64,000 nucleotides of DNA, from contig CBDBHB010000006.1 of NCBI GenBank assembly GCA_965205505.1, positions 224,001 through 288,000 of the forward strand, read 5' to 3'. Below, in pieces: positions 3,645-60,452 of this stretch. A model generated the notes under the pieces. The model was not told where the DNA came from. It did no database searches and worked only from the letters and a program-made list of their open reading frames with translations. Position 1 is the first letter of the stretch; each line of letters starts with the position of its first letter. The position numbers were made by a program, and so were the translations under genes. Origin of the DNA: Acidobacteriota bacterium. GTDB taxonomy: Bacteria; Acidobacteriota; UBA890; WLXD01.

Positions 3645-3679
3645 GCCAGACCCACCACACTTCCACCACGGCCTGCTAG
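3645..3679 (+). repeat. Family A terminal-repeat copy
   Basis: GCCAGACCCACCACACTTCCACCACGGCCTGCTAG matches the reverse complement of 60178-60212 at 34/35 positions. Confidence 0.85.
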
Positions 3680-3689
3680 GATTGCGCAG

Positions 3690-4190
3690 ATGGGCAACGA
3701 GGGCCTCACGCATCTGGACGAGCAAGGTCGAGCTCGGATGGTCGATGTGGGCGACAAGCCCGCGAGTGAGCGGCGCGCCGTGGCGTCGGGATGCCTGGTC
3801 ATGTCAGCGAGCACGCTGGATCTTGTCCTCGCTGGCGAGGTGCCCAAGGGGAACGTCGTCGAGGTCGCCCGCATTGCCGGGATCCAGGCAGCCAAGCGAA
3901 CCGCCGAGCTGATTCCTCTGTGCCACACGCTGCCGCTGTCTTACGTCGATGTTGAAGTCGAACCCGACGCCAACGGATTGCGCGTCACTGCGACGGCTGC
4001 CACCACCGCCGCCACCGGGGTAGAGATGGAGGCGCTAACCGCCGCCGCGGTCGCGTTGCTGACCCTGTACGACATGTGCAAGGCGATCGAGAAGGGCATG
4101 CGCGTTGTCGATTTGCGCCTGGAGGAGAAGACCGGTGGGCGCAGCGGCACATGGGCGCGAACGAAAACAGGGAACCGCGGTTCACAGTAG
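3690..4190 (+). CDS. moaC: Cyclic pyranopterin monophosphate synthase MoaC
   Basis: Motifs LTHLD..G.ARMVDV, LIPLCH, TGVEMEAL, YDMCKA and EKTGGRSG. ATG 3690 is preferred over the upstream ORF start. Confidence 0.95.
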   Translation: MGNEGLTHLDEQGRARMVDVGDKPASERRAVASGCLVMSASTLDLVLAGEVPKGNVVEVARIAGIQAAKRTAELIPLCHTLPLSYVDVEVEPDANGLRVTATAATTAATGVEMEALTAAAVALLTLYDMCKAIEKGMRVVDLRLEEKTGGRSGTWARTKTGNRGSQ

Positions 4191-4191
4191 C

Positions 4192-4206
4192 GGAAAAGAT
4201 TTGCCC
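4192..4206. promoter_or_regulatory. Candidate bEBP upstream activating sequence (GGAAAAGATTTGCCC)
   Basis: About 95 bp upstream of the sigma54 site at 4299. Resembles the GGGAAA-N-TTCC sites at 8560, 8582 and 9672. Confidence 0.5.
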
Positions 4207-4298
4207 ACGGCGCGAGACTTCGTACTGAATGACGGCGGCCAGGCCCGGACATCCGGGGGCTGACCCGAGCGGCCAGCGTGCCGGGCCGCCGCCGCCGC

Positions 4299-4313
4299 TG
4301 GCACGCCCATTGC
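4299..4313 (+). promoter_or_regulatory. sigma54 -24/-12 promoter
   Basis: TGGCACGCCCATTGC matches TGGCACG-N4-TTGC, 60 bp upstream of ATG 4374. Confidence 0.85.
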
Positions 4314-4373
4314 TCCAATTCGGGGTAGCTGTGTACTCGCTGCCAGCCTCACGGCAGCCACCCCCGAGGATCG

Positions 4374-5897
4374 ATGGTCCAGCTCTTCCAGCGCTACGTA
4401 CCCTACAGTAGCGTCGTTCATTTCATGGTTCAGAGCTTGCTTTGCCTGACCGCGTTCACGCTCGTCGTTCAGGTAGCCTGATACACGCAGCTCGATCCGA
4501 CCCTACCGTCGCTGGCGGGTGTGCGCCTCGGCCGTATCGCGACGACCGTGGCCACGTTGGTCAGCGTCTTCTATCTCACCGGATACTTCGAGCGGCGCAA
4601 CCATCTGAGCACGGCGCTGTTCGTGCCGCGTCTTATTCAGGCGGTGCCACTGTCGGCGGCGACGCTCGCCCTGTTGTACCAATTCGTACCGTCGGTGGCA
4701 CTGGGCTGGGAGGTGGCCGGAGCCGGGCTGGGGCTGATGGCCCTGATGATGATCGCGTGGCATTGCGTCGCCCCGAGCATGGTGAGCGAGGATACGCTGG
4801 CCGAGAACATCCTCTTGATCGGCGACGGCGAGCTTGCCTACCAGGTTGCTGATCGCGTCGGCAACGCCGCCCCGTGGGGCTTCCGCCTAATTGGCTACGT
4901 GCCGGTGGACGATGCCCCGCCGTACGATGCGGCGCCCCACGAGGCCCGGGCATCGCCCAGCGCCATCGCCCATCGGCTACGCGGCGGCGGCGCTGTTGGC
5001 AACACCGCCCTGGCGCTCGACGCAGACTCTCGTGTGCTGCCGTTCCCGGTCCCTTTGCGAATCGACGCGCCGGCGCTGGGGCGGCTCCAGGACCTCGATG
5101 CGATTCTCAGTGAGCGCGACGTCCACACGATCGTCGTGGCTCTGAGCGACCGCCGCGGCAAGCTGCCGCTGGCAGCACTGATCCGGGCGAAGCTTCGCGG
5201 TGTAGCCGTGTTCGACGCCATCGAGTTCTACGAGCGGCTTACGGGACGGCTGCTCGTATCGCGGATGCGACCCAGCACGATCATCTTCTCCGACGGTTTC
5301 GCGCCCGGTCGCATCAGCCGCGCCATGAAGCGATTCCTCGACGTGGCTGTGGCTTCGACGCTGCTGGTGATCAGCGCACCCGTGCAGCTGCTCGTTGCAA
5401 TCGCCGTGGCGCTTACCTCGCGCGGTCCGGTGCTCTTCCGGCAAGGGCGCACCGGTATTGCCGGGCTGCCCTTCACGATCCTCAAGTTCCGCACCATGCG
5501 GGTCGACGCCGAGAGTGAAGGCCCCCGTTGGGCAGCCGAAAACGATGATCGCATCACCTCGATCGGCCGCTTCCTGCGCACCTCGCGGCTCAATGAGCTG
5601 CCGCAACTCTGGAACATCCTCCTGGGGCACATGAGCTTCGTTGGCCCGCGGCCGGAGCAACCGGCTTTCGTAAGGATGCTGCGCAATCGAATCCCCTACT
5701 ACGACCAACGTCACGTGATTCGACCCGGCCTAACCGGATGGGCGCAGGTCAAGTATCCGTACGGTGCCAGCGTGGAGGAGACGGTGGAGAAGCTCGAATA
5801 CGACCTCTACTACATCAAGCACAGCTCGATCGCCTTCGACGTCACGATCATGTTCGAGACGGTGCGCGTGATGCTGACCGGCAAGGGTGCGCGATGA
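4374..5897 (+). pseudogene. Priming sugar transferase (PEP-CTERM/XrtA-system EpsB-like) with an in-frame TGA at 4479-4481
   Basis: RBS GAGGA, then ATG 4374 (MVQLFQRYVP) in the same frame as ORF 4521..5897, interrupted by TGA at codon 36. The C-terminal Bac_transf motifs FTILKFRTM, GHMSFVGPRPE, RPGLTGWAQV and KLEYDLYY are present. Confidence 0.8.
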
Positions 5898-6118
5898 AGC
5901 CCGCTGCGCATACCAACTTGCTGACGATCGTCGTTGAGGACTATTTCCACGCTACCGGATTGGGCGGCACCAGCATACGGGACCGCTGGGATAAGCTGCC
6001 CGGCCGCGTCGAGTACAACACTCGCCGTCTGCTGCGAGTGCTCGACCGGCATACGCCTGCCGCGTCGCCGCGTCGCAGCCAACGAGGTCGTCCAGGTATC
6101 AATGGCGTCGGAGGATGA
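5894..6118 (+). pseudogene. N-terminal fragment of an XrtA-system polysaccharide deacetylase
   Basis: ATGA overlap with the transferase stop. NLLTIVVEDYFH...RVEYNTRRLLRVLDRH is followed by unrelated sequence after about 6052, and the expected ATFF motif is absent. Confidence 0.75.
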
Positions 6119-7080
6119 GAACCCAGGCGAGGCACCAGCGGTGCTCAGCGGATGGTTGCGCGCAAAGCCAAAGTGCCCAATCAGGTTCCAGCGGGCTGTC
6201 TGAGTGCCGATGCTGGCGGTGGCGCGATCACGGATCGTCGGGCGGCCGAGTCCGGTCGTGAATCCGACATCACGCTCTGCTAACAATCCGAGGGGAATTC
6301 GATCCAGCGTGTGGCTCAGGCGCGCGCTAGCAACGTAACCGGGCGAGCCGAGCGCGTCGGCAAACGCGACTCCGCCAGCTTCTTGCGTCTCCTGCAACCA
6401 CAACACGCCGCCTCGAAGGCGGAGCGTTGTGTGCCGCCGCACTTGATAGTCGAGTCCGCCGCTGGCGGATACCGTGCGGGCCTTCGACCCGCTATCGAAG
6501 CGACCGAGGCTGGCGCTGACACCGGCGAATAACGAGACGCGCTAGGTCACACCGTGACCGTAGCCGACGGACAACGAATAGCGATCGCTGCCAGCAAGCG
6601 TCTGATCGGTGCCCGCCTGATCGGGAAAGCGAAGACGGCGATATCGAGCCGTCATTGAAACACTGTCGCGGGGCGTTAGCTGATGCACGAGCGCAGCATC
6701 GACGTCGGCTCGCGCCTGTCGCGATCGCGGTACGATGATCTCGGTAGCATCGAGCCCACGCAGCTCGTTGGAAACATACGGCCCGACTGCTCGAAGCTAC
6801 TCGCTATCTGGCTGTCGCTGTAGCGCTGATAACCTGGCGTATAGCTGAAGTCGGCACTCCAGCGCGGTCCGCGGAGCCGGAACGGCAGATCCGCGCTCAC
6901 CGCCACGAACCCCGACTCGCGGGGATCACCGACGAGCCGTAGCGGGTTGCTGCTGAGGCTGCCTAGCAGGGTGAGCGAGGGCGCGAAGGTCGAGCGGCTT
7001 GTAGACTGCGCCAGCGCCACTCCGGACAGGCCCACCGTCACGAAGGCCATGAGCACGGCAACTAGCCGCGACACGGGCAC
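6055..7080 (-). pseudogene. Outer-membrane beta-barrel-like EPS export protein, disrupted
   Basis: Signal peptide and alternating beta-strand pattern in ORF 6676..7080. After a frameshift near 6778 it continues as YVSNELRGLDA..., hits an in-frame TAG at 6542-6544 and joins the frame of ORF 5810..6442. The 3' end runs into the deacetylase remnant. Confidence 0.6.
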
Positions 7081-7105
7081 CTGCGCGAGGGCGCGACGGC
7101 CGCAA

Positions 7106-7143
7106 TTCGCTAGGGCACATATATTTCGCTAGGGCACATATAT
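7106..7143. repeat. Perfect 19-bp tandem duplication
   Basis: TTCGCTAGGGCACATATAT twice (7106-7124, 7125-7143), covering the last codons and stop of the export gene. Confidence 0.9.
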
Positions 7144-8340
7144 GATGTCTCCCGACTGCAAGACGAACTCCCCGGCATCCGCGCGGCCCTTCATGACGTC
7201 GCCGTAGCGATACGGAATACGCACCCTCTGATTCTCGATGGTGCGGAGGATCGTGGTGCCGTTCTGGTCGGCGAACTCCGTCGGGCCGCCCGCCATGGAG
7301 ATCGCCTGCAGCACGGTGATGTTGCGATCGAGCGTCACCGGGCCTGGCGTGCCGACGCGGCCGAGCACATAGACCACCAGGCTCTTGATATCGGTGACCG
7401 TGACCGTAACGGTCGGCACCTGAACGAAGTCGCGCAGCAAGGTGGTGATCTCGGCCTCGACCTCTGCCGCTGTCTTTCCGGCCACAGCTAGCTCGCCCAC
7501 GAGCGGCAGCGAGATGTAACCATCGGGCCGCACCGGTACCCGGCGACTGAGCTGCGCGTTGCGCCACACGAACACGTCGACCTGGTCGCCGGGGCCGAGC
7601 CGGTAGTCGCCGCTACCGAACGACCGAGTGTGAGGCTGCCGCTCACCGAGTGATGAGCCGAATCCAACAAGCCGGTCGGGCGCCGGGTAGGAGCTCAGAG
7701 AAGGCTGCGCCGGCGACGGCGCCAACGCATTTCTCTGCGACTGTCCATGGCCTTGCGGTAGCTGACTTTGACCCCAGGCGGATCCGTTCATCGACGCGTG
7801 GCGCGGAAGCTGACGATTCCGGCTGGTCGACACCTGCGGTGGACCCGCCATCGTGGGTGTATCAGCTGCGTCACCAGTGGAGTCCGAAAGGTACGCGCGT
7901 ACGCCGGCCAGCTCAGCTACATCGGTCGACCGAGGACGCTCCACAATCGTCTGCTTGGACGGAGCAAGCCACTGCCCATCTTGCAGCGGAAGCCATGCCA
8001 CACCATCCTCGTCAATCGACGTCGTCTCACCACCCGGGAACGCGCCTGCGGTGGTGGCGTGAGACTCGACGGCAATTGCAGTCGGACGCACCGGAATGCT
8101 CGTCACCCGAGGCGATGCGGGCATGTTGGTAATGACGACGCCATCCCCACCGGCTCGAGTCGGAAGTTGCGCGGGAGCATCCGCCACATGCACAGTGATC
8201 GAGCTGTGCGAAGGCATCACGACGCGAATCGGGATTCGGGGACGATCGTGCTGCTGCGCTACGGCTGCTCCCGGGGCCATGATCAGGCCAATGAGACTCA
8301 GCAGCACGGCAGTGCGTCCAGTTCGGTGTTCGACTCGCAT
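7129..8340 (-). CDS. Polysaccharide biosynthesis/export (Wza-like, Poly_export + SLBB) protein with a long N-terminal extension
   Basis: YRLGPGDQVDV.VW..VPVRPDGYISLPLVGE, VYVLGRV..PG and LQSGDIIYVP. ATG 8340 precedes a signal peptide and lies downstream of the sigma54 site at 8410-8424. Confidence 0.85.
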   Translation of the reverse strand: MRVEHRTGRTAVLLSLIGLIMAPGAAVAQQHDRPRIPIRVVMPSHSSITVHVADAPAQLPTRAGGDGVVITNMPASPRVTSIPVRPTAIAVESHATTAGAFPGGETTSIDEDGVAWLPLQDGQWLAPSKQTIVERPRSTDVAELAGVRAYLSDSTGDAADTPTMAGPPQVSTSRNRQLPRHASMNGSAWGQSQLPQGHGQSQRNALAPSPAQPSLSSYPAPDRLVGFGSSLGERQPHTRSFGSGDYRLGPGDQVDVFVWRNAQLSRRVPVRPDGYISLPLVGELAVAGKTAAEVEAEITTLLRDFVQVPTVTVTVTDIKSLVVYVLGRVGTPGPVTLDRNITVLQAISMAGGPTEFADQNGTTILRTIENQRVRIPYRYGDVMKGRADAGEFVLQSGDIIYVP

Positions 8341-8409
8341 CAATGTCTCCGTGGACGCGCCTCTCGGCGTCGCCCCGTTAGGGCTCCGGTTCAAGCGAGC
8401 ATTCCATGT

Positions 8410-8424
8410 GCAATCGGCGTGCCA
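8410..8424 (-). promoter_or_regulatory. sigma54 -24/-12 promoter
   Basis: The minus strand reads TGGCACGCCGATTGC. Confidence 0.85.
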
Positions 8425-8559
8425 CCCCGAGCTTCGGTCCTGACCCTGAACAGAATGACGCGGCGTTGCGCGAGTAGCTTTGATCATTGGATTTTCAACG
8501 CACACCGGCACGCGCCCTCCGGAGGCATCGGGGCCTCGTAGGCGAACCGTCCCGTGGAA

Positions 8560-8596
8560 GGGAAAAAAGCTTCCGGGCGTTGGGAAAAAGACTTCC
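8560..8596. promoter_or_regulatory. Tandem candidate bEBP binding sites
   Basis: GGGAAAAAAGCTTCC (8560-8574) and GGGAAAAAGACTTCC (8582-8596), 22 bp apart, about 140-170 bp upstream of the sigma54 site. Confidence 0.65.
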
Positions 8597-8601
8597 ATCG
8601 C

Positions 8602-9525
8602 TCACCGCGCGGGGTGCAGGGACGCCATGGCCCGGAGCTTTGCAGACAGCGCCTTGTAGCTGATACCGAGCAGCGCCGCGGCGCGGTGTCGGTCACCCGC
8701 CACGAATTCGAGCGTACGAATCAGCCAGGAACTCTCGGCGTCGCGAACCACCAAACGACGCACCTCCTTGAGTCGCACCGACTGGCCTCGATGCAGCGCC
8801 TCGAGAGCAGCCATCTTCGGCTTCCTTCCCCAGTCGCCGGCAGCGGCGCCGGTAAGCCGACGGACCTCTTGGCGAGCCGCCACGCGTGCATTACGCTGGC
8901 GCACAGCGGCGGCGGCGAAGGAATCGATGTCGCCGAGCGCTGCCGGCCAACGATACCCACGCAGGTAAGTGAGCGCCCGCTCGATTCCCCAGGGCAAATC
9001 GAGCCGCTGATCACGAGAGTGCAGCTCCAAGTAGTGATCGAGAATCCTTGGAAGGTCTGCGTCCCTGGTGTGCAGCGGCGGAAGATCCACGGCGATCAGT
9101 CGATCATGGAGCGGGCGCCGCATCGGCCACTCGTCAGAGTCCGAGCTGACGACCAGGAAGCGCGTAGCGCAGCGTGATCTGAGGTCGATGCGCTCCGCCA
9201 CCTCGATCTGCACCGATGGCGCTAGGCGACCGGGCTCGTCGAGCAGGAGCGATCCACCTGCGGCCCGTTCGCAGGCAGCTCGAAGCTCCGCCCGCTGGTT
9301 CTCGGGTCCGCATTCCGTCAGCCGAGCTCCGTCGACTTCGACCAGCGGGGCGTTGGCTCGTCCGCCCCGATGTAAGGTCAACGCTACCCAGCGTCGGCCC
9401 CCTCCCGGCGCGCCCCTGAAGAGCACGGCGACGGGAAGGCCGGTCAGACGGGCGATCGTAAGCGCCAGAACGGAGTCGGGCGGCGCGGGGTATGCAACTC
9501 GTGAGCCATCTATCGGGGAACCCAT
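8602..9525 (-). CDS. Degenerate sigma54-activator-like AAA+ protein with a Fis-type HTH (no GAFTGA, Walker A Lys lost)
   Basis: GAPGGGRR in place of GxxGxGK, LLLDE retained, YRWPA for WPGN, and HTH AAALLGISYKAL. ATG 9525 lies downstream of the sigma54 site at 9540-9554. Confidence 0.75.
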   Translation of the reverse strand: MGSPIDGSRVAYPAPPDSVLALTIARLTGLPVAVLFRGAPGGGRRWVALTLHRGGRANAPLVEVDGARLTECGPENQRAELRAACERAAGGSLLLDEPGRLAPSVQIEVAERIDLRSRCATRFLVVSSDSDEWPMRRPLHDRLIAVDLPPLHTRDADLPRILDHYLELHSRDQRLDLPWGIERALTYLRGYRWPAALGDIDSFAAAAVRQRNARVAARQEVRRLTGAAAGDWGRKPKMAALEALHRGQSVRLKEVRRLVVRDAESSWLIRTLEFVAGDRHRAAALLGISYKALSAKLRAMASLHPAR

Positions 9526-9539
9526 GTGACGGTTGTGGT

Positions 9540-9554
9540 GCAAGCGATATGCCA
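9540..9554 (-). promoter_or_regulatory. sigma54 -24/-12 promoter
   Basis: The minus strand reads TGGCATATCGCTTGC (GG-N10-GC). Confidence 0.7.
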
Positions 9555-9671
9555 CGTTCGACGGCGAAGCTCGGGGCTCAGCAGCGCGCCGATGGCGCGG
9601 CCCACGTCGCCTCCTGGCGGCGCCTGTCCAACCTGGTCAGAGGACCGAATCCGACGATGGAGCGACTACAA

Positions 9672-9687
9672 GGGAAAGATTTTTCCC
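9672..9687. promoter_or_regulatory. Candidate bEBP binding palindrome GGGAAAGATTTTTCCC
   Basis: GGGAAA-N4-TTTCCC inverted repeat about 120 bp upstream of the sigma54 site at 9554. Confidence 0.6.
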
Positions 9688-9767
9688 GGTATGGGAACGC
9701 CGCGTACCGTCCGAGCCAATCGGCACCGTGGCGCACGAGCTGGAACGGCTGGCAGTCGCGCTCGCGA

Positions 9768-11117
9768 TCAGGCAGCGGTAATGCCGCAATTGCGGATCTT
9801 GTACAGCAACGCCTTGTAGCTGATATGAAGGAGATTGGCAGCCTTACGCCGGTTCCACCGCGTCTGCTCGAGCGCCCGGCGGATCAGCTCGCCCTCGACC
9901 TCTAGTGCCGCCAACCGCGACACTTCTTTGAGCGGCGGGATAGCGCCGGCGGTTCCAATCAACGCGTCGACATCGAGCCGGCCCGCGTTGGGGTCACGGT
10001 GCGACCCCAACGATTCGATGCTACCTTCGACATCTTCGAGCACTACCATGCGCCGGATCACGTTCTGCAGCTCGCGAACGTTGCCCGGCCATTCGTGGCG
10101 CGACAACGCGTCCAGGGTCTGCCGGGAGAGCAACCCCAGACTCCGCTCGTACTCGCGCTCGTAGCGGCGTACGAAATGTTGCGCCAGCAGCGGGATCTCG
10201 TCGCGCCGTTGGCACAACGGCGGCACCTCTACGCGAATCACGTTGACACGATAGAACAGGTCCTTACGGAACGAGCCCTCGGAGATCTCGCGCTCCAGGT
10301 CGCGGTTCGTCGAGGTCACGACACGGGCATCGATCTTGATCTCGCCTCTGCCACCGAGTCGGTAGAAGCTGCCGTCCTGCAGTACCTGAAGCAGTTTCGC
10401 CTGCGTACCGCCAGCGATCTCACCGATCTCGTCGAGCAAGATCGTGCCGCCGTTGGCGAGCTCGAACTTCCCCGGCTTGTCTCGATCAGCGCCGGTAAAG
10501 GCACCGCGCTCGTAGCCGAAGAGCTCCGATTCCAGCAGCTGATCGGGCAACGCCGCGCAGTTCACCTTCACGAAGGGGCCGGTCGAACGGCCGGAGACTC
10601 CGTGCAAGTGGCGTGCGACGACCTCTTTGCCAACACCACTGTCGCCGGTGATCAGCACGGGGACGTGGGTATCGGCCACCTGTCGAACCAGTTCGCGTAT
10701 GGCGCGCATCGGCGCCGAGCCGACAACCAGCTCGTCGGTATCAACTCCTCGGGCCGACTCGAGCAGCATGACCAAGGCTCGATCGATTGCCTCGGAAGCC
10801 CCAACGCGGGTGATTCCTTTCACACAGGGGCGCTCCAGGAGCATGCGAATGTTTGCGTCTTCGAGCTCGTCGCTCAGCAACAGCACCGGAATTGATGGCC
10901 CTGCCGCCTGCAACGCATCGAGGGCTTCCGTCAGTGGTCCCTCGCGCTGCTCACCCAGCACGATTGCTTGCGGTCGAAAGCCGTTGCGTAGCACATCGAT
11001 CGCCTCGTCCCGGCTGGCCGCAGCGACGACACGGTAGCCGCTTCCGAGCAACGTCGCCCGCAGACGATCACCGCCGGCGCTGCGGTCGACGAACAAGATC
11101 TTCTTGGGGTCGGGCAT
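9768..11117 (-). CDS. sigma54-dependent bEBP with an atypical receiver domain
   Basis: GDSGVGKE, ESELFGYERGAFTGA, LLDEIGE, FRKDLFYRVNV, WPGNVREL and a C-terminal HTH. RBS GGGAG before GTG/ATG 11120/11117. Confidence 0.9.
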   Translation of the reverse strand: MPDPKKILFVDRSAGGDRLRATLLGSGYRVVAAASRDEAIDVLRNGFRPQAIVLGEQREGPLTEALDALQAAGPSIPVLLLSDELEDANIRMLLERPCVKGITRVGASEAIDRALVMLLESARGVDTDELVVGSAPMRAIRELVRQVADTHVPVLITGDSGVGKEVVARHLHGVSGRSTGPFVKVNCAALPDQLLESELFGYERGAFTGADRDKPGKFELANGGTILLDEIGEIAGGTQAKLLQVLQDGSFYRLGGRGEIKIDARVVTSTNRDLEREISEGSFRKDLFYRVNVIRVEVPPLCQRRDEIPLLAQHFVRRYEREYERSLGLLSRQTLDALSRHEWPGNVRELQNVIRRMVVLEDVEGSIESLGSHRDPNAGRLDVDALIGTAGAIPPLKEVSRLAALEVEGELIRRALEQTRWNRRKAANLLHISYKALLYKIRNCGITAA

Positions 11118-11291
11118 CACGCCAGTCTCCCGGTACAAGGCGGCCAAGGTCGGCCGGCCCGAGGTGCGGACCGGTCGGTCGCAACTCAACCTATGGGAAT
11201 TGGATTGCTCACAGCAATCCAGAATGTTTCCCACCCTCGACACGGCCGCGATCGAGCGGACAGGAGTTGCGTTTGCTGTGCAGGCGTGCGC

Positions 11292-12332
11292 TCAGGCTGC
11301 GCCAGCGCCGCCAAGCAAACGCTCGACCACGCTCTCCCAGGAATGTCGCCGCGCTACCCCGAGGCCGGCTTCGCCCAGCCCCGCGGCCACCTCCGGTCGA
11401 GTCACTCGCTGTAGCGCGATTGCCACGGCGGCGGGCTCGGGCTGCACCACGAAACCGGTCTCGCCGTCGACCACCAGCTCGGCCGGCCCCCCCGAATCGA
11501 CGCAGGTGATCACGGGCTTGGCGGCGCTGAACGCCTCTAGCGTTACCAGGCCGTAGTCCTCGGCTTGGGCCCCATACCAGACCGCGGAGCATCGAGCGTA
11601 TTCGTCGACCAACTCTGCCTCGCTGAGGCGACCCAGGAACTTCACCCGATCGCCTATCTGCAGCGCCTCCGCCAACCCGCGTAGGCGTGCCGCCTCCGGC
11701 CCCTCACCAGCGATCCGCACCGCCAGGGTCGGCGCCTCAGCGACCCCCCTCAGCAGCAGCGCGTTGCGCTTTAGCGGCTGGAGACGCGCGACCGACAACA
11801 CCACACCGTCATAGCCGTCGCAGCGGTACGGACGCTGCGGGGCCGGTGGATGGAGAACTTCCGACTCGGTACCACCCCATCGCTGGAGTCGACCCCGGAT
11901 GGTTTCGGACTGCGCGAAGACCTTTTGACTGTTACCGAGGAAACGCCGGTCCAAGCTGTGTAGGACTCGCCGCCGCAACCCCTCCACGATACGACCGCGC
12001 AGCCCCAGACTAGCGCGGAAGGAATCCCACAGGTCGTAATACTCACGCATTCGGTGGTTGAGCCACACTACGTGATGCGGATGACGTACAGCGTAGGAGG
12101 GGAAGCGCAGGCTGACCACTACATCGACAGGCTTGCCGTCGCCGGTCATGCCGACATCGGTCAGCCAGGTGGCCAGGTAGGCGGAAAGCTGGCGTCCGAA
12201 GCGGTTCTGCGGCGTAGTCAACACCTCGGCGGCGTGACCCAGCTCGCGCAACGCGCGGACGAGCGACCGAGCAATGACACGGTGGCCGCCCTCGACCAAC
12301 GGTACGTCGGAAGTAACTACGAGGGCTCGCAA
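11292..12332 (-). CDS. Glycosyltransferase family 4
   Basis: SVARLQPLKR and EDYGLVTLEAFSAAKPVI..DSGGPAE. Confidence 0.9.
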   Translation of the reverse strand: MRALVVTSDVPLVEGGHRVIARSLVRALRELGHAAEVLTTPQNRFGRQLSAYLATWLTDVGMTGDGKPVDVVVSLRFPSYAVRHPHHVVWLNHRMREYYDLWDSFRASLGLRGRIVEGLRRRVLHSLDRRFLGNSQKVFAQSETIRGRLQRWGGTESEVLHPPAPQRPYRCDGYDGVVLSVARLQPLKRNALLLRGVAEAPTLAVRIAGEGPEAARLRGLAEALQIGDRVKFLGRLSEAELVDEYARCSAVWYGAQAEDYGLVTLEAFSAAKPVITCVDSGGPAELVVDGETGFVVQPEPAAVAIALQRVTRPEVAAGLGEAGLGVARRHSWESVVERLLGGAGAA

Positions 12333-12379
12333 AGCAGTGTCCTGAAGCTAGCAGAAGTGTGGCCGGCCTGGTGGCGGAC

Positions 12380-12392
12380 TAAGTGTTTGATT
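12380..12392. promoter_or_regulatory. Candidate IHF site
   Basis: TAAGTGTTTGATT matches YAA-N4-TTGATW. Confidence 0.5.
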
Positions 12393-12423
12393 TCGTTGCG
12401 TACCGCTTCCGCGCCGAGGCGAT

Positions 12424-12475
12424 TGTTGCAGAAAAACCACACCTGCGCGGGTCGAAATGATGCAAAAATGCCACA
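12424..12475. promoter_or_regulatory. Two 18-bp candidate enhancer sites upstream of lpxC
   Basis: TGTTGCAGAAAAACCACA (12424-12441) and TGATGCAAAAATGCCACA (12458-12475). Confidence 0.55.
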
Positions 12476-12550
12476 TATCGGCCTGACGACACGATGGACT
12501 CTTGGCCGAAGTCGCTGAAACCAAAGGGGTTCGTCAGTTCATAGCCATCT

Positions 12551-12565
12551 CGGCACGGAACTTGC
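12551..12565 (+). promoter_or_regulatory. sigma54 -24/-12 promoter of lpxC
   Basis: CGGCACGGAACTTGC, 33 bp before ATG 12599. Confidence 0.8.
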
Positions 12566-12598
12566 TTGTTCATAGGCGGGATCCAATCGAGAGCGCTG

Positions 12599-13507
12599 AT
12601 GACTCTGACCCAGAAAACGATTCGACGCGAAGTGAGTTGCGCTGGCATTGGCCTGCACTGCGGCAAGCGCGTCGAGATGCGGCTGCTTCCCGCAGCGCCG
12701 GACACCGGGATCCGCTTTCGTCGAGTCGATTTTGACTCGCACGAGATCCCCGCTTCGATCGAGAACCTGCACCAGACGAGCTTCGCTACTCAGTTGAGCC
12801 TCGGCGACGCCTCGATCAACACTGTCGAACACGTATTGGCAGCCGCTAGCGGGCTCGGCGTGGACAACCTTGTCGTCGAGGTAGCGGGTGAAGAGGTGCC
12901 CATCATGGACGGGTCGGCGGCGCCGTTCGTCTATCTGCTGCACGAGGCGGGCCTGCGGCGCCAGCAAGCGCCGCGCAAATTCATAAAGCTCGTAGAGCCG
13001 CTGCGCATTGACGAGGACGACAAATTCATCGCTATCTATCCGGCGGAGCGACTGAAGGTCTCATATACGATCGATTTCGACCATCCCCTTATCGGAGTGC
13101 AGCGCGAAACGTTCGTCATCACACCGCGTGCCTTCACCGAGCAGGTCGCGCCGGCCCGCACCTTCGGTTTCCTGAGGGACGTCGAATCTATGCGCAGCCT
13201 CGGCCTTGCGCTGGGCGGTTCGATCGAGAATGCCGTCGTGGTCGGCGAGAACTCGATCCTGAACCCGCAGCTGCGGTTCCCAGACGAGTTCGTGCGACAC
13301 AAGATTCTCGACGTGATCGGCGACCTCACTCTGCTGGGCCGGCCGTTGCTCGGCTATGTAGTAGCGTACCGCGCCGGACATAGTCTGCATGCCGCGCTAG
13401 TGAACAAGATCCGCACGACGCCCGAGGCATCACAGGTCGTTACCTGGGACGACATCGTTTACGGTCTCGCCGCCCGGAGACAGGTGTCGGCAACGTCCCC
13501 CGCTTAA
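12599..13507 (+). CDS. lpxC: UDP-3-O-acyl-N-acetylglucosamine deacetylase
   Basis: QKTI, GIGLHCG, TVEHVLAA, EVPIMDGSA, ARTFGF, EFVRHKILDVIGDL and AGHSLH. Confidence 0.97.
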   Translation: MTLTQKTIRREVSCAGIGLHCGKRVEMRLLPAAPDTGIRFRRVDFDSHEIPASIENLHQTSFATQLSLGDASINTVEHVLAAASGLGVDNLVVEVAGEEVPIMDGSAAPFVYLLHEAGLRRQQAPRKFIKLVEPLRIDEDDKFIAIYPAERLKVSYTIDFDHPLIGVQRETFVITPRAFTEQVAPARTFGFLRDVESMRSLGLALGGSIENAVVVGENSILNPQLRFPDEFVRHKILDVIGDLTLLGRPLLGYVVAYRAGHSLHAALVNKIRTTPEASQVVTWDDIVYGLAARRQVSATSPA

Positions 13508-13547
13508 GCAGCGCGCTCGTCCCCAAAGTTGCACCACGGCCTGCTAG
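13504..13547 (+). repeat. Degenerate family A element (TTAA...CACCACGGCCTGCTAG)
   Basis: 16-bp exact match to the family A end at 13532-13547. The left YTAR tetramer contains the lpxC stop. Confidence 0.65.
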
Positions 13548-13626
13548 CATTGGCGGGTACGATTCTGCAGCGACCCTCTTGCCGTAGACGGGCAGGCCTG
13601 CGCGCCGCCCCAGGTCCCACGACGCG

Positions 13627-15864
13627 ATGATTCACAGCACGCCAGCCGATCAACAACGTCGAGCGCGGCATCGCAACCTGATTGTTATCGGGCTGGTGCT
13701 GTTGGTGGCGACGTTCATCGCCATCGAGATCGCCCTGCAGCAATCTACCGATAGCTGGTTACCGGTGTCCAACAAGGTGCTGCTTCATGCGATTACGATA
13801 ATCAACATCGTCCTCGTGCTGGTGCTGCTGTTCGTGCTGGGTCGAAATCTCATCAAGCTGTACGTCGACCGCCGGCACCGGAAGCTGGGTTCCAGGTTCC
13901 AGACCAAGCTCATGGCCACCTATGTGGGTCTGTCGCTGGTGCCCACCATCATCCTCTTCTTGGTAGGCAGCGACTTCATCCAGAAAAGCGTTGATCGCTG
14001 GTTTTCCAAGGACGTGACGTCGGTCCACGAGCGCGCTCGCGACCTCGTGCGCGAGGCCTCCGAGGTCCAGCAACTGCAATTACTCGGGCTCGGTGCTGCG
14101 CTAGCCGCGGAGATCACCGAGGGACGCCTGTTCCCGAACGAGGCCTGGCAGCTCTTGAGCCGCGAGATGAGTCGCAAGCTCGAGCTCGGATACCTCGACG
14201 TCGACGCCGTGGCCGTCTATCGAGACCATGAGCAGCCACATGCACCGGTGCTGCGAATCGACAGCTTCCTGCAGGGGCGTGAGTACCTGCTCGACATACC
14301 GAGCACCTCGATTCTGATGGGCATGTCGGGACAGCCATTCCGCCACGACATGGAGATCGAAGGCGGCAATCGCCTGATCCTCGCAGGTGTACCCATTTAC
14401 GCGCCGGCGGACCGTGAGGTCGACGGCGTGCTGGTGGTAGCACGAGTAATCGACGGGGCGCTGGCAGCCGAGCTTGCCGCGGTGCTCGACATCTACGCCG
14501 ACTACACGCAGGGCATCGAGGAGAAGGAGCCGATCACCAACGCCTATATCCTGACCTTCCTGCTCTTGAGCTTGCTGATCGTGTTCGGGGCAGTGTGGCT
14601 GGGGCTCTATCTGGCGAAGGGCGTTACCGGGCCCATCCGGAGTCTGTCGGAAGGTACCCGCGCGGTGGCGGCAGGGAACCTCGACTATCGGGTCCAGGTC
14701 GAGAGCAACGACGAGCTCGGCTCGCTGGTGGAGTCGTTCAACCGAATGACCGAGGATCTCTCGGTCGGCCAGCGCAACCTGGAGCAGTCCCGAACGGAGT
14801 TAGAGGGCAGCATCTCCGAGCTCGAGGAACGACGCAGCTACATGGAATCAGTACTGGCGAACATCGCCACCGGGGTAGCCTCGATGAACGCCGAGGGGCA
14901 CATTACGACATTCAACCGAGCTACCGCCGACATGCTGGGCATCGACGCGGGCGCGGCCATCGGCAAACCGTATGGAGAGGTCTTTGCCGGCGATAACTTC
15001 GCTGAGCTGCGAACGCTCATACAGCACGCGCGTCCGCGGTTGGCAGCGCTGGAAGAAGAGCTGACGGTAGAGGCCGCCGGCCAGCGGCTGACGCTCGCCG
15101 TGCACTGCTCGAGCCTGCGCGACAAATCGAGTGGGTATCTCGGCACCGTCGTGGTGCTCGATGACCTCACCGGGCGAATCCGCGCCCAAAAGGTCGCTGC
15201 CTGGCGCGAGGTGGCACGCCGGATCGCCCACGAAATCCGCAATCCGCTCACTCCGATCCAGCTCTCGGCGCAGCGTATCGCCCGTCGCTACAAGCGCGCC
15301 GTCGGAGCCGAGGACGAGTACGCCGTAATCGACGAAGGGACCCGCACGATTCTGCAGGAGGTCGCCACGCTGAAGTCGCTGGTGGAAGAATTCAGCCGCT
15401 TCGCACGCATGCCGTCGGCCAAGCCTGTTTCGTCCGACCTTCACCGGATCCTCGAGGACAGTCTACGCCCGTATCCCGAGCTCCATCCGGAGCTCGAGAT
15501 CAAACGGAATTTGACCGCCGACGTACCGCCGTTGCAGCTTGACCCAGACCAAATGCGACGGGCGTTCACCAACCTGTTCGATAACGCGGTCAAAGCAATG
15601 CAAGGCAACGGGCGACTGAGCGTCACCACCGTGTTCGACTCTGATCTCGAGGTAGTTCGGGTGGAAGTCGCCGACAACGGCCCCGGAATCCGCCCGGAAG
15701 ACAAGGACCGGCTGTTCATTCCGTACTTCTCCCGAGAACACGACGGAACCGGGTTGGGCTTGGCAATCGTGCGGCAGATCGTCTCGGATCACCGTGGATA
15801 CATACGGGTCGTCGACAACGTGCCTCACGGCACTACCTTTGTCGTTGAGTTGCCGACAAGCTGA
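13627..15864 (+). CDS. NtrY-like membrane histidine kinase (HAMP-PAS-HisKA-HATPase)
   Basis: Several TM helices, a HAMP domain, AWREVARRIAHEIRNPLTPIQLSA, NLFDNA, DNGPG and GTGLGL. Confidence 0.92.
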   Translation: MIHSTPADQQRRARHRNLIVIGLVLLVATFIAIEIALQQSTDSWLPVSNKVLLHAITIINIVLVLVLLFVLGRNLIKLYVDRRHRKLGSRFQTKLMATYVGLSLVPTIILFLVGSDFIQKSVDRWFSKDVTSVHERARDLVREASEVQQLQLLGLGAALAAEITEGRLFPNEAWQLLSREMSRKLELGYLDVDAVAVYRDHEQPHAPVLRIDSFLQGREYLLDIPSTSILMGMSGQPFRHDMEIEGGNRLILAGVPIYAPADREVDGVLVVARVIDGALAAELAAVLDIYADYTQGIEEKEPITNAYILTFLLLSLLIVFGAVWLGLYLAKGVTGPIRSLSEGTRAVAAGNLDYRVQVESNDELGSLVESFNRMTEDLSVGQRNLEQSRTELEGSISELEERRSYMESVLANIATGVASMNAEGHITTFNRATADMLGIDAGAAIGKPYGEVFAGDNFAELRTLIQHARPRLAALEEELTVEAAGQRLTLAVHCSSLRDKSSGYLGTVVVLDDLTGRIRAQKVAAWREVARRIAHEIRNPLTPIQLSAQRIARRYKRAVGAEDEYAVIDEGTRTILQEVATLKSLVEEFSRFARMPSAKPVSSDLHRILEDSLRPYPELHPELEIKRNLTADVPPLQLDPDQMRRAFTNLFDNAVKAMQGNGRLSVTTVFDSDLEVVRVEVADNGPGIRPEDKDRLFIPYFSREHDGTGLGLAIVRQIVSDHRGYIRVVDNVPHGTTFVVELPTS

Positions 15865-17251: not shown

Positions 17252-17349
17252 TGCTCCTGATCATGAGTACGGTGCGTTTGCAGGAGCCCTGTGGTTTGCT
17301 CCCCACGGGAACGTGGGGCGTCGGTGCACATCTCATGCTCATGAAGGAG
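17248..17349. repeat. Family C CTAG-bounded element at the ntrX-like stop codon
   Basis: CTAGTGCTCCTGATCAT is the exact reverse complement of 20487-20503. A degenerate right arm TGCTCATGAAGGAG and an internal CCCCACG/CGTGGGG hairpin are present. Confidence 0.65.
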
Positions 17350-17479
17350 GCGTCGGAGCGGTGTCCGGGTCCCGGAAGCGGGGTGGCTCGAGGCTCGCGC
17401 CGACTCGCCTGGGCAGCAGAGGGCGGTCAGGCGGCTGCGCTTACGAAAGCTGTTTTGCACAACAATGCACACCCGTGCG

Positions 17480-17509
17480 TTGACCATACCGCGCTGCTAT
17501 TGCTAGCAT
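17480..17509 (+). promoter_or_regulatory. Candidate sigma70 promoter
   Basis: TTGACC-18-TAGCAT with a TGn extension, upstream of TTG 17572. Confidence 0.45.
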
Positions 17510-17571
17510 TGGATGTCTGGGGCGGACATCTTGTTAGCGGGGGGCGAGCGCTCGGGGTGGAGCGTTATCCG

Positions 17572-44896: not shown

Positions 44897-44966
44897 GCAC
44901 GGGTGAGACGGACGCGCAGATGGGGCTTCCGATCAGACGACCATTTCCACCTGGCGAAGACCGAAG

Positions 44967-45054
44967 CTAGCAGGCCAGGGACAGTGGGCCCGTGGGCCCG
45001 ACGGAGGCAGGAGGGTGCGCCGCCGTCGGGCTCCACGACCCGCTGGTGCGCTAG
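44967..45054. repeat. CTAG-bounded hairpin element (family A-like remnant)
   Basis: CTAGCAGGCC...CTAG. The right CTAG holds the fimT-like stop, and there is an internal GCCCGACGG/CCGTCGGGC stem. Confidence 0.5.
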
Positions 45055-46651: not shown

Positions 46652-46679
46652 CCCTCTCTCGGGGTGTCGCGTGGCGGTG

Positions 46680-46762
46680 CTAGCAGGCGGTGGTGGAAAT
46701 GTGGCGGGCCTGGTCGCGTCGTAACCCTCCGGGCCCGCCACACTTCCACCACGGCTTGCTAG
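46680..46762. mobile_element. Complete 83-bp family A miniature inverted-repeat element
   Basis: 31-bp arms (46680-46710, 46732-46762) match at 28/31 and both end in CTAG. The right CTAG contains the stop of ORF 46759..47631. Confidence 0.8.
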
Positions 46763-53852: not shown

Positions 53853-53927
53853 CCCTTACGCCCTCGATATCGGATTCTAGCAGGTTGTTGGCTTCATCCG
53901 ATCGTCTCGGAGGAGAAGCGGATGGCG

Positions 53928-56870: not shown

Positions 56871-56986
56871 ACAAAAATCTACCCGCGGCCGGTAATGGTA
56901 GCTTCAGTCGCTTTGCTGCCAGGTAGTTGAGACGGCCGCGTGAGCCGAACCTACGCACCGCGTCGATGGGCGATGCGGCGTGGCGC

Positions 56987-58000
56987 TCAGCCAGCCCGTG
57001 TGGCCGGCACCGCGGGACTCTGGAAGCGCTCGAGATACCAGGCCACCGTCTGCTCCAAGCCGGCGGCAAAGTCGACTCAGGGCAGATAACCGATGGCGTG
57101 CTGGGCGTGCTCGATGGCCGCCTGCGAATCACGCACGTCGCCCACGCGAGCAGGCGCGAACTCGGGCTCTAGCGAGGTACCGAGGATCGCATTGACAGCT
57201 TCGACGAGCTGTAGCAGACAATAGCGCTCGCCCACTCCGATGTTGGCCACGGTACTGCGACCGCTTGCAGCCGGCTCGCCCTCGCCAACGCAATCGATAC
57301 CGGCCGCCAACAAGTTGGCGCCTACCGCGTTCTCCACGAAGGTGAAGTCGCGCGACTGGCGACCATCGCCGTAGATGATGGGTGACAAGCCGTCGAGCAT
57401 GCGCTGGATGAACTTGGGCACGACGGCAGCGTAATTGGAGGTTGGGTCCTGACGTGGCCCGAAAATATTGAAGTAGCGTAGAGCCACCGTGCGGGTGCCG
57501 TACTGGCGAGCCCAAATCGCCAGCAACTCCTCCCCGACCGCCTTGCTGAGAGCGTACGGAGAGAGCGGCTCCAAAGGCATATCCTCGTGCTTCGGCAGGG
57601 TTGGCGAGTCGCCGTACACCGACGATGAGCTAGCCATAACGACCCGGTCCACCGCTAGCTTTCGGCAGGCCTCGAGCAGCGTTGCGGTGCCCTCGATATT
57701 GACTCGAAGCGTCGACGCCGGGTCGTCGAACGAACGTGGCACAGAAGGAATCGCAGCCTGGTGGAAGACCGCCTCGGCACCGTCGAGCGCGGTATGGATG
57801 GCCGTCTCGTCGAGGATGTCGGCGGTCAGTAGAGTCAGATCGCCGGCATGCTCGCCGGCCGAGGCGCGTGCGTCGTCGAGATTGTTGCGAGTCCCCGAGG
57901 ATAAATTGTCGACGACGACAACATCGTGACCACGCCGCAGCAGCGCTTCGGTCAGGTGCGATCCGATGAAGCCCGCGCCACCAGTCACCACGTACTTCAC
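56987..58000 (-). pseudogene. NAD-dependent nucleotide-sugar epimerase (WbpP/GalE-like) with a premature TGA at 57077-57079
   Basis: TGGAGFIGS, SSSSVYG, YALSK, LRYFNIFGPRQ and GDG.QSRDF. After GYLP* the frame continues VDFAAGLEQTVAWY, the family's usual last helix. Confidence 0.8.
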
Positions 58001-59757
58001 AACGCTGTCTCCCTCAACACTTCTTCGATCGATGTCACACCCTGCCAGATCTTCACCAATCCACTCTCGCGCAAGGTGATCATCCCGGCGCTTCGCGCCT
58101 CGGATCTGATCTCCTCGTTGGTCGCGCCGTTGACGATCATCTCACGCAACCTCGCGCTGATCCGCATCACCTCGAACAGGGCGATGCGACCCTTGTAGCC
58201 TGTCCCGAGGCAGGCGTCGCAGCCGACCGGGTGGAAGACGGTGACGGCCATCGCCTCCTCCGGCGACAGGCCGATCTCGACCAGCGCCTCCGGATCCGGA
58301 GTGGACACCTCGCGGCAATTCTTGCACAACCGACGGATCAACCGCTGCGCCACCACGAGCTGCACCGACGACGACACCAGAAAACGCTCCACGCCCATGT
58401 CGACCATCCGGTTGATCGTTGAAGGAGCATCGTTGGTGTGCAGCGTCGAGAGCACGAGATGTCCGGTGAGCGCGGCCTTGATGGCAATGTTCGCCGTCTC
58501 GGCGTCGCGAATCTCACCCACCAGGATCGTGTTGGGATCCTGGCGAAGGAACGCCTTCAGCGCGGTGGGAAACGTCAGCCCCACCGCCTCGTTGATTTGC
58601 ACCTGGTTGATCCCCTCGAGGTTGAACTCGACTGGATCTTCTGCAGTCATGATGTTGGTGTCGGCGCTGTTGACGGTCGAGAGCGCCGAATACAAGGTGT
58701 TGGTCTTGCCTGAGCCGGTCGGGCCGGTGACCAGCACGATGCCGAACGGAAGTCGTATCGATTGCTCGAAGCGCTCCAACGATGCCTTCTCGAAGCCGAG
58801 ATCGGCCAGGTTGAGCTTCAGTCCCTCGGGGTCAAGCAAGCGCATGACGATCTTCTCGCCCCAGATCGTCGGAAGCGTCGACACGCGCAGGTCGAGCTCC
58901 CGAATGCGCTCAGCAAGCTTGACGCGGATCTTGATACGCCCGTCCTGCGGTCGGCGACGCTCGGAGATGTCGAGCTCAGACATGATCTTGATGCGCGATG
59001 CGATCGCTTGTTGCAGATGTTTGGGAGGCTCCATCACCTCGTAGAGCAAGCCATCGATCCGGTAGCGCACGCGCAGCCGCTTTTCGTATGGCTCGATGTG
59101 GACGTCGGACGCCTCGCGGCGCAGCGCGTCAGTGACCAGTAGGTTGACGAGCTTGATGACAGGTGCGTCGCCGCTGGCCCTCGAGAGCGCCTCGAGGTCG
59201 ATTTCTTCCTCGTCCTCGACGATCTCCACGTCGCCGGGGTTGCGGATCTCTTCCTCGAGATCCGTCATCATCTGGCGCATCTTGGCGTCATCATGACTGC
59301 CGTAGAGAGCGCTTATAGCGTCGCTCACGGCGCGATCGGCGGCGACCATCGGCTTTACCCGCAGGCCGGTCGCGAACTCGATGTCATCGATCGCCACCAC
59401 GTCTGTGGGGTCGACCATGGCCAAAGTGAGGCTCTGTGAGTCGGCTGCTACTGGAACCGCGAGATAGCGTTTCGCCATCTCCTGTGGCACGAGGCTCAAG
59501 ACTGTGCTCGACACGTCCAGGTTCTGGAGGTCGGCGGCAGGAACGCCGAACTGGCGCGACAGCAGATCGATGAGATCTTCTTCGCTCAGCAGCTCCAGCA
59601 CTACGAGAATGTTGCCGAGTCGCTCGCCGGTCTCCGCCTGCATCTGCAGGGCGCGCTCGAGGTCGGCCTCCGAAACCAATCCCGACTCGACGACGATCCG
59701 GCCGAGTCGAACGGTCGCACTGGCCGCCTTACGACCCGCGGTCGCTCTGCTGCCCAT
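57997..59757 (-). CDS. pilB: Type IV pilus extension ATPase with an MshEN domain
   Basis: RLG..…GLV…L..AL..Q-RLG repeat, ASDVHIEP, PQDGRI, GPTGSGKT, LRQDP, TGHLV.STLH and tetra-Cys. Confidence 0.95.
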   Translation of the reverse strand: MGSRATAGRKAASATVRLGRIVVESGLVSEADLERALQMQAETGERLGNILVVLELLSEEDLIDLLSRQFGVPAADLQNLDVSSTVLSLVPQEMAKRYLAVPVAADSQSLTLAMVDPTDVVAIDDIEFATGLRVKPMVAADRAVSDAISALYGSHDDAKMRQMMTDLEEEIRNPGDVEIVEDEEEIDLEALSRASGDAPVIKLVNLLVTDALRREASDVHIEPYEKRLRVRYRIDGLLYEVMEPPKHLQQAIASRIKIMSELDISERRRPQDGRIKIRVKLAERIRELDLRVSTLPTIWGEKIVMRLLDPEGLKLNLADLGFEKASLERFEQSIRLPFGIVLVTGPTGSGKTNTLYSALSTVNSADTNIMTAEDPVEFNLEGINQVQINEAVGLTFPTALKAFLRQDPNTILVGEIRDAETANIAIKAALTGHLVLSTLHTNDAPSTINRMVDMGVERFLVSSSVQLVVAQRLIRRLCKNCREVSTPDPEALVEIGLSPEEAMAVTVFHPVGCDACLGTGYKGRIALFEVMRISARLREMIVNGATNEEIRSEARSAGMITLRESGLVKIWQGVTSIEEVLRETAL

Positions 59758-59920
59758 ATCCGACGTGCGCTGCTGCTTTGGCGCCAAGTTGACTCCCGAA
59801 ATGGCTCTACCGGGAACGACCCATGCCACTTGATAGACGGCCGGCGGACGTTCCCGTACTAACCGTTGAACGCTCGAGAACGTTATGACGAGATTACTTA
59901 GAATTACTATGCAACTCAAA

Positions 59921-59935
59921 GCACAAACATGGCCA
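59921..59935 (-). promoter_or_regulatory. Possible sigma54 promoter upstream of pilB
   Basis: Minus strand TGGCCATGTTTGTGC has GG-N10-GC spacing but deviates from the consensus. Confidence 0.35.
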
Positions 59936-60096
59936 CTAAAAGATAAAAAGAGATAGCTAGCGACCCTCCTGGACGTTCTAAGTCGCCCAGGGTCCCGTTG
60001 CGAGACTGTCGGTGTATCCTCGAGGAGGGCCGACGGCGGAGGCGGCCGGTCCCACAGCCACCCGTAAGGGCTGGGACGGATTCCCGACTCAGGACA

Positions 60097-60452
60097 CTAG
60101 TGGCCTGTAACAGATGATCGTTGCATATCGCAGATGGGATTTGCGGGTGAGATCAAGGCGCGGCGAGGAAGGCGATGCTAGCAGGCCGTGATGGAAGTGT
60201 GGTGGGTCTGGCAAATGGGACTCACGGGCTAGGGCAAGGATCGACGACGAGGCGATGTTTGCCCATCGTCGAGGAGGAGAGACGCCGCCATCGCCCGTGA
60301 CTCCCACTTACCCTACGGGTTACGCCGCCAAGGGCGCGTCTGCGGCGTTGCTCCTCCTCGAAGATGGGCAAACATCGTCTCGTCGTCGCGCCTGGCATCC
60401 GGACCCATTTCGCCACCACGATATGCAACGATCATCTGTTACAGGCCACTAG
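60097..60452. mobile_element. 356-bp family B MITE with perfect 34-bp terminal inverted repeats and a nested family A insert
   Basis: CTAGTGGCCTGTAACAGATGATCGTTGCATATCG at 60097-60130 and its exact reverse complement at 60419-60452. Internal 38-bp inverted repeat (60242-60279 / 60351-60388, 36/38). Family A end at 60178-60212. Confidence 0.88.

Follow-up and report, generated by a model that had tools for sequence, protein, structure and literature searches.

Why do the ends of a small mobile element coincide with promoter motifs in front of core and pilus genes? The question arises in a 64,000-nt stretch of an Acidobacteriota genome (GCA_965205505.1, contig CBDBHB010000006.1, positions 224,001 to 288,000; G000:C6:224001-288000 in our labels and "the window" below), which holds ends of a CTAG-targeting MITE (a miniature transposable element bounded by inverted repeats), here called family A. 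An earlier note on this sequence had observed that such ends, with three flanking bases, read as an extended -10 promoter (TGn-TAnnnT), and had offered two explanations: either the element inserts into -10 boxes, or it is retained where it supplies the TG, in which case it may be wiring core and pilus promoters. We compared the source genome (G000) with relatives labelled G001-G012, of which G001-G004 belong to the same genus; the relatives are few and not independent of one another. Our preferred reading, to which we assign a probability of roughly 0.7, is that the overlap of MITE ends with -10 boxes is a target-site effect, with no sign of gene rewiring: the MITE often lies on -10 boxes because host promoters read TGCTAGnnT and the element inserts only at CTAG.

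A predicted host promoter class that contains the insertion target

Genes were called with a simple caller of our own, giving 5,084 predicted genes in G000, and TANNNT hexamers were counted by their distance from the start codon. At spacers of 6, 7 and 8 nt there were 61, 45 and 30 hexamers, respectively, against 4-20 at each of the other spacers between 0 and 20 nt. Judged by its position, this peak is the expected signature of leaderless genes, and it points to a predicted class of ~136 such genes in G000, in which a -10 box of the TAGnnT type lies 6-8 nt ahead of the start codon. TGn is present in 31 of these 136 genes and TGC in 20, CTAGnnT is found in 23, and the third hexamer position is G in 44%.

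Likewise, the motif class is strand-biased in element-free, co-directional spacers, with sense to antisense counts of 206:69 for TGNTANNNT, 105:29 for TGCTANNNT and 39:10 for TGCTAGNNT. Among 406 element-free upstream sites C follows the TG in 48%, the third base of the hexamer is a G in 38% and a C in 29%, and the commonest 9-mers are TGCTACACT, TGCTACGAT, TGCTAGAAT and TGCTAGGCT. The position and orientation of the motif fit the downstream gene in three respects, namely the 206:69 bias, the 6-8 nt peak and the conservation described below at moaC, ntrY, purB and pilS. On this evidence the lineage has a native, predicted sigma-70-type extended -10 consensus, TGCTA(G/C)nnT, which contains the MITE target CTAG.

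The family-A element and its target

Family A is a non-autonomous IS5-type MITE of 279 bp with inverted ends of ~34 nt (CAGGCCGTGG…CCACGGCCTG). Requiring a match to the final 26 nt of the consensus end with at most six mismatches, we called 343 ends in G000; they form 83 inverted pairs, of which 43 have a spacing of exactly 279 bp, and 182 ends are solo. The repeat family proposed in the earlier note is genuine, as the string CCTGCTAG occurs nine times in the window versus 1.39 expected, a count that none of 100 shuffles reached, and has 519 copies across G000.

The end layout is CTAG-CAGGCCGTGGTGAAAGTGTGGTGGGTCTGG…, and past the CTAG the base composition is back at background at once. At pilD, a gatC-like gene, a GT4-type glycosyltransferase gene (GT4) and a remnant at 1335, empty orthologous sites hold one CTAG and filled sites two, and therefore the element proper is CAGG…CCTG and duplicates the 4-bp CTAG, a hallmark of the IS5 subgroup; the YTAR duplication that the note had invoked agrees with the description of IS5, which duplicates YTAR and most often CTAG (PMC5493358). 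Mobility is seen in filled versus empty sites among G000-G004 and G007. The MITE was present in 23 of 41 genomes searched, G000 counted; these represent both families of the order as well as two further families in the phylum.

We then scored how many CTAGs are occupied by family ends. Intergenic and stop-codon CTAGs are occupied alike, at 175/2058 (8.5%) and 62/752 (8.2%), respectively, and in-gene CTAGs at 9/2989 (0.3%); this is most simply explained if insertion at CTAG is uniform and gene-breaking insertions are removed. Of the 5084 predicted G000 genes, 1827 end in TAG, and since the CTAG target contains TAG, ends also come to lie on stop codons, as we could confirm for those at 1335 and 46759.

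Element junctions in front of predicted leaderless genes

Four true family-A ends lie exactly 6-7 nt before ATGs, namely at moaC and, outside the window, at the gatC-like gene, a HAD-like gene and C9:2686735. At all four the element end and its flank would together form the promoter motif. The gatC-like gene carries a full 279-bp element in G000, and the empty site in G004 reads GAGCTAGACT-N7-ATG, hence the hexamer is native and the TG was added by the element. At the HAD-like gene, element ends are found in G000, G004 and G007, and TGCTAGGCT-N6-ATG stands without an element in G001-G003, G006 and G009. Similarly, CCTGCTAGACT precedes the ATG at C9:2686735 natively in G001-G003 (N7) and G006 (N6), so that at these two of the four loci the full TGCTAGnnT is present without the element. 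Support for the first alternative of the earlier note, insertion into -10 boxes, comes from G004 at the gatC-like gene and from G001-G003, G006 and G009 at the HAD-like gene, where the empty site holds a single CTAG within TAGnnT 6-7 nt before the ATG.

The moaC locus is more varied. G004 shares the end seen in G000 and has one hairpin module in addition, and this end is also found at moaC in G007. TGCTA(G/C)GAT-N7-ATG is found in G001, G002 and G003 and TGCTAGCCT-N6-ATG in G005; none of these four has an element body, and in all of them 8-12 nt identical to the element tip precede. TG is missing from G006, which reads TCTAGACT-N6-ATG (hexamer TAGACT), and from G009, which reads GCTACACT-N6-ATG (TACACT). 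The boxes of moaC and of the HAD-like gene are each occupied by the element in two genera. As the start of a leaderless gene must stay at its ATG, element DNA is probably part of the predicted working promoter at the gatC-like gene and moaC.

No genome-wide sign of selection for the completed motif

Enrichment of T at the third base after the CTAG, the lack of which would by the earlier note refute its proposal, was absent genome-wide. T stands there at 55 of 249 CTAG-finishing ends (0.22), compared with 0.212 at 1,914 element-free intergenic CTAG sites and an intergenic T content of 0.186. Taking one end per flank cluster gave 37/203 and singletons alone 34/176; this de-duplication was needed because 12 ends with the flank CATCGCCTTCCT represent a family-A-in-family-B composite that was copied as a unit. 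After the exact string CACGGCCTGCTAG, T follows in 51/234 cases in G000 and 118/642 pooled over ten relatives (G004, 62/310; G002, 12/57; G003, 11/90; G007, 10/45; G008, 20/119; with small counts in G001, 1/7; G005, 0/7; G010, 2/4; G009, 0/3; and G006, 0/0).

Direction made no difference either, with T at 32/110 ends that point at a gene start and 18/69 that point at a gene end (p = 0.73); ends classed inside genes, a class that includes those with CTAG as the stop codon, had T in 5/70. T-bearing family ends in co-directional spacers are oriented 18 sense to 7 antisense, as would be expected were they retained as promoters, but this bias does not differ from the 57:40 of ends without T (p = 0.26). 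Furthermore, CTAGs within leaderless -10 boxes are occupied no more often than other CTAGs, in 4 of 23 cases (17%; p = 0.13 against 8.5%). Retention of the element as a supplier of TG that wires core and pilus promoters thus finds no backing in base frequency, direction or occupancy.

Motifs in the window

All seven TGCTARNNT sites listed in the earlier note are present, as is TGCTAGCAC at 46677-46685 (-), and an eighth TGCTARNNT site that it had not listed lies at 17501-17509 (+). In the seven listed sites that end in T, TGn stands immediately 5' of TAnnnT, a combination that is absent at pilD (TGCTAGCAC). Eight TGCTARNNT sites compare with 4.55 expected, a number attained in 12 of 100 shuffles, so the promoter-like reading as a count is not above chance in the window; of the six true family-A ends there, three have the final T (p = 0.11 against 0.212). 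Gene names given in the note were broadly right by Pfam, which identified MoaC, a glycosyltransferase of the GT4 type, LpxC and after it an NtrY-like kinase, adenylosuccinate lyase, a prepilin peptidase, a PilS-like kinase and a PilB-type ATPase among the window genes. The features are collected in Table 1.

Table 1. Family-A ends, remnants and extended -10-like motifs in the window (window coordinates).
Feature	Position	Strand	Remark
MITE remnant between two CTAG copies	1298..1338	.	each CTAG is the TAG stop of one convergent gene (3-1301 +; 1335-3506 -)
Solo right terminal inverted repeat, family A	3646..3679	+	ends CCTG + CTAG and points at moaC; 33/34 consensus match
TGCTAGGAT, extended -10-like 9-mer	3674..3682	+	leaderless layout, moaC ATG at 3690 (7 nt after TAGGAT)
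Degenerate left end CTAGCAG-AAGTGTGGCCGGCCTGG	12348..12371	-	tip yields TGCTAGCTT (12345-12353 -), 12 nt before GT4 start 12332
16 nt (13532-13547) identical to MITE tip, then TGCTAGCAT (13542-13550)	13532..13550	+	76 nt before ntrY-like ATG 13627
TGCTAAAAT	41621..41629	-	31 nt before purB start 41589; native promoter-like motif
TGCTAGCTT	44964..44972	-	upstream of minor-pilin cluster (pilV); uncertain meaning
83-bp mini MITE, flanking CTAG duplicated	46680..46762	.	between pilD (start 46645) and the upstream gene's stop (46759)
TGCTAGAAT	53874..53882	-	21 nt before pilS start 53852; native promoter-like motif; PilS by Pfam
Family-B MITE, CTAG tips, with nested family-A element	60097..60452	-	nested right end 60178-60211 gives TGCTAGCAT at 60175-60183

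Comparison with relatives separates these sites. Upstream of purB, AACCTGCTAAAAT is kept in G004 and G002, G001 has AACCTGCTAAGAT, and the G003 row starts at TAGAAT; upstream of pilS, AACCTGCTAGAAT is invariant in G001-G004. Both spacers are otherwise variable and contain no end-like sequence. At ntrY, GCCTGCTAGCAT is invariant in G001, G002 and G003 and is also found in G006 and G010, and variants of it are seen in G009 (GCCTGTTAACAT), G005 (GCCTGCTACCAT) and G007 (GGCTAGCAT); G002 additionally has a mini element inserted at that same CTAG. Neither the 279-bp query nor the exact end string found a MITE in G006. As the motifs are kept in relatives without the element at the site (at ntrY including G006), the short purB and pilS "remnants", whose ancestry the earlier note had called uncertain, are native promoter-like motifs and not element-derived, and the ntrY core likewise appears to be native.

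The GT4 and pilV sites behave differently. At GT4 the empty G001 site reads CACTAGCTT on the gene strand, without TG, so the TG came with the element; conservation gives no support for promoter function of the GT4 motif. At pilV, G004 reads a related TGCTATTTT, the motif is not preserved in G001 or G002, and no end-like sequence was found upstream of 44964-44972. The suggestion that the element supplies the TG therefore stands for the gatC-like gene and GT4 and fails at ntrY, purB and pilS, where the TG is native. Put the other way, relatives without the element, which the earlier note had named as a further ground for refutation, have the same TGCTA motif at most loci (ntrY, purB, pilS, the HAD-like gene and C9:2686735) but not at gatC and GT4.

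The remaining ends lie on stop codons or inside a copied repeat. A 79-bp insert at pilD is missing from all four genus relatives, of which G001, G003 and G004 have a single CTAG (the stop codon) and G002 has CTAC; this G000-specific insertion went into the upstream gene's stop codon, and its pilD-facing end, TGCTAGCAC, is without the final T. On the pilB side, the nested end at 60178 lies ~390 nt upstream of pilB (start 59787), and since its flank CATCGCCTTCCT recurs at 12 family-A ends genome-wide, the T at 60175-60183 is best assigned to the copied family-B/family-A composite and not to an independent insertion. At the 1298-1338 remnant, G002 and G003 have a single CTAG and G004 a different short remnant. 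Judged by its position where the two convergent genes end, that single CTAG in G002 and G003 may hold both stops, with a TAG on either strand; the duplication by the MITE remnant in G000 gives each convergent gene a separate TAG.

As further observations, the TGCTAGCAT at 17501-17509 (+) falls within 17252-18306, where our caller placed no gene, and a complete rRNA operon (5S, 23S, two tRNAs and 16S) occupies 26575-32181 on the minus strand and explains the GC dip at 28-32 kb.

Structure and mobilisation of family A

Two long hairpin modules lie between the inverted ends of the MITE, which folded as RNA reaches -178 kcal/mol (z = -13). Rfam searched against the window returned no family matching the MITE and matched only rRNA and tRNA genes. 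The 279-bp MITE at L001:201-479 (G000:C2:21471-21749) and its copies in G007, G011 and G012 keep their length and two-hairpin-module layout at an identity of only 72-76% over two families of the order; such conservation is unusual for a non-coding mobile element. Subfamilies exchange internal modules and keep their ends and total length, for example at C8:237035-237313. Upstream of moaC, one whole hairpin module present in G004 (L007) is cleanly gone from G000 (window 3620-3646), with the palindrome CAAGTGGGAC…GTCCCACTTG exactly missing, which suggests that modules may be lost by hairpin excision or replication slippage.

Other CTAG-tipped repeats accompany family A. Family B has perfect 34-nt inverted ends (CTAGTGGCCTGTAACAGATGATCGTTGCATATCG), CTAG-tipped, and part of 60097-60452 matches many places in the genus relatives at 76-82% identity. 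Several family-A ends (e.g. G000:C9:1914706, C8:177799 and C9:2498460) adjoin a recurring flank, CTAG-TGTCCTG(A/T)…, which looks like the tip of a third such family.

The family-A MITE, small and in many copies, has no transposase of its own, and the small open reading frames seen within it are of the sort that GC-rich DNA usually shows. Two end-flanked stretches of 1371 and 1465 bp considered as an autonomous partner in G000 were rejected, as they carry L-PSP and TonB_C genes and not transposases. In G007, a 1.3-kb IS5-family insertion sequence (IS) at G007:C1:164142-165454 (L034) encodes a 358-aa transposase with DUF772 and DDE_Tnp_1 domains, has CTAG duplications and starts at its tip with CAGGC. 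It has in common with the MITE ends only this CAGGC… tip and partial similarity, and it ranks as the strongest candidate for a relative of the enzyme that mobilises the MITE. Pairs of CCTGCTAG recur in G007 ~1305 bp apart, which suggests many copies of this IS. A search of G000 with the G007 transposase and with DUF772 gave no match, the single DDE_Tnp_1 gene in G000 has no MITE end close by, and no IS with ends matching family A was found in that genome.

Discussion

Empty sites show the element landing at a CTAG within native, predicted -10 boxes. We propose that the CTAG duplication then rebuilds TAGnnT on the gene side, where the CTAG and its flank would stay the hexamer, and that the element tip, …CCTG, puts TG at the extended -10 position, so that a plain -10 would sometimes be upgraded to an extended one. 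The promoter would stay active even though 279 bp now lie between it and the DNA formerly upstream. Promoters of the extended -10 type can do without a -35 box, which is probably why insertions into -10 boxes are tolerated; at a 17-nt spacer the element, read from its consensus, offers ACCACA for TTGACA, a match of 3/6. A CTAG in a stop codon or a -10 box would be a tolerated target because the duplication restores it.

Several observations weigh against a pure target-site effect. A Fisher test at the level of orientations gave 4/179 versus 19/3828 (odds ratio 4.6, p = 0.0175), a hint of a modest preference of the element for -10 boxes; we set it aside for the site-level occupancy test, as it was picked post hoc and enters each CTAG once per orientation instead of once per site. 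At moaC, CCTGCTA… with 8-12 nt of tip identity is found in every genome of the genera labelled g1, g2 and g4, and the genomes of genus g3 are without TG, a pattern that would fit an old insertion of which only the tip was kept, that is, the retention proposed in the earlier note. At ntrY the match of G000 to the element tip extends over 16 nt, beyond what the conserved core needs. For both loci the history could be either an old insertion decayed to its tip or a native CCTGCTAG that was hit repeatedly. Finally, gene starts come from a home-made caller, so that spacer counts carry some error, and the motifs are predicted promoters, recognised by position, strand bias and conservation; a look-up of window 3650-13640 listed no sequencing run recorded as RNA that contains this DNA.

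A bolder reading is that the element tip is tuned to the host extended -10 consensus. An insertion into a -10 box, in many cases in front of a leaderless housekeeping gene, would rebuild a working TGCTAGnnT that is half mobile and half host DNA, promoters would serve as safe, reused landing sites, plain boxes would be upgraded at gatC and perhaps at moaC, and the element would join core-gene promoters without creating them. We regard this as tentative, with the odds clearly against it.

Exaptation, in which selection keeps those element ends that contribute the TG or an entire extended -10 and the MITE has rewired core and pilus promoters, seems to us unlikely. It would account for the TG that is absent from the empty gatC-like site (G004, GAGCTAGACT) and GT4 site (G001, CACTAGCTT) and present with the element. 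It would also suit moaC, where the g3 hexamer is without TG, the full end is present in G000, G004 and G007, and its last 8-12 nt only in G001, G002, G003 and G005; and ntrY, where the sequence displaced upstream by the mini element of G002 is no longer CCTGCTAG. However, there is no T excess at +3 in G000 or ten relatives, and TG is native without an element at the site at the HAD-like gene, C9:2686735, ntrY, purB and pilS, including in the MITE-free G006. Of the pilus genes themselves, pilD has an end without the final T, and the end on the pilB side lies within a composite that has been copied.

That the coincidence is pure chance, with an end plus nnT arising at ~20% from base composition, no motif at an end working as a promoter and the genes transcribed from elsewhere, is the least probable reading: it suits a T frequency equal to background and a non-significant TGCTARNNT count in the window, but not four true ends exactly 6-7 nt before ATGs with no Shine-Dalgarno motif in the flanks shown, a hexamer position kept across genera with and without the element, or the genome-wide 3:1 strand bias of the motif class.

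With respect to known promoter types, extended -10 (TGn-TAnnnT) and leaderless promoters agree with what we observe in motif, lack of an evident -35, distance of 6-8 nt to the ATG and strand bias; compared with extended -10 promoters in general, this lineage favours TGCTA(G/C)nnT, so that the box encloses CTAG. Family A is an IS5-type MITE whose target happens to sit inside the predicted host -10 consensus, and its nearest parallel appears to be the "Black promoter" of the Correia element (CREE) of Neisseria, which holds a -35 and a partial -10 that insertion at some sites completes (PMC2649163). Both are short non-autonomous elements with inverted ends that lie just upstream of genes, with an end that carries, or in family A is predicted to carry, a partial sigma-70 promoter and a flank that completes the -10 at some sites (PMC2649163, PMC10969869), and sigma-70-like promoters are listed for several other bacterial MITEs in a review (PMC10969869). 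Unlike CREE, with its -35 and partial -10, family A would supply only the TG, the hexamer being the duplicated target TAG plus the flanking nnT, and this hexamer demonstrably pre-exists at empty sites. Moreover, the promoter activity of CREE was shown experimentally, whereas that of the family-A junctions is predicted from sequence. In common with IS5 of Escherichia coli and its subgroup, family A has a 4-bp YTAR duplication, mostly CTAG (PMC5493358), inserts into regulatory spacers and has a likely relative, in G007, with a DDE_Tnp_1 and DUF772 transposase; it differs from IS5 in being 279 bp long and without a transposase. IS5 itself activates E. coli operons by other routes, as described in PMC5493358.

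Short matches to the tip of a repeat can therefore be native regulatory motifs, for CCTGCTAG is at once element tip plus target and part of the promoter vocabulary of the host. If the rebuilt boxes are active, several core or essential genes such as the gatC-like gene and moaC would depend for transcription on promoters with mobile DNA as their upstream half, and the filled and empty alleles would form a natural series for the effect of TG extension and -35 loss on a leaderless promoter.

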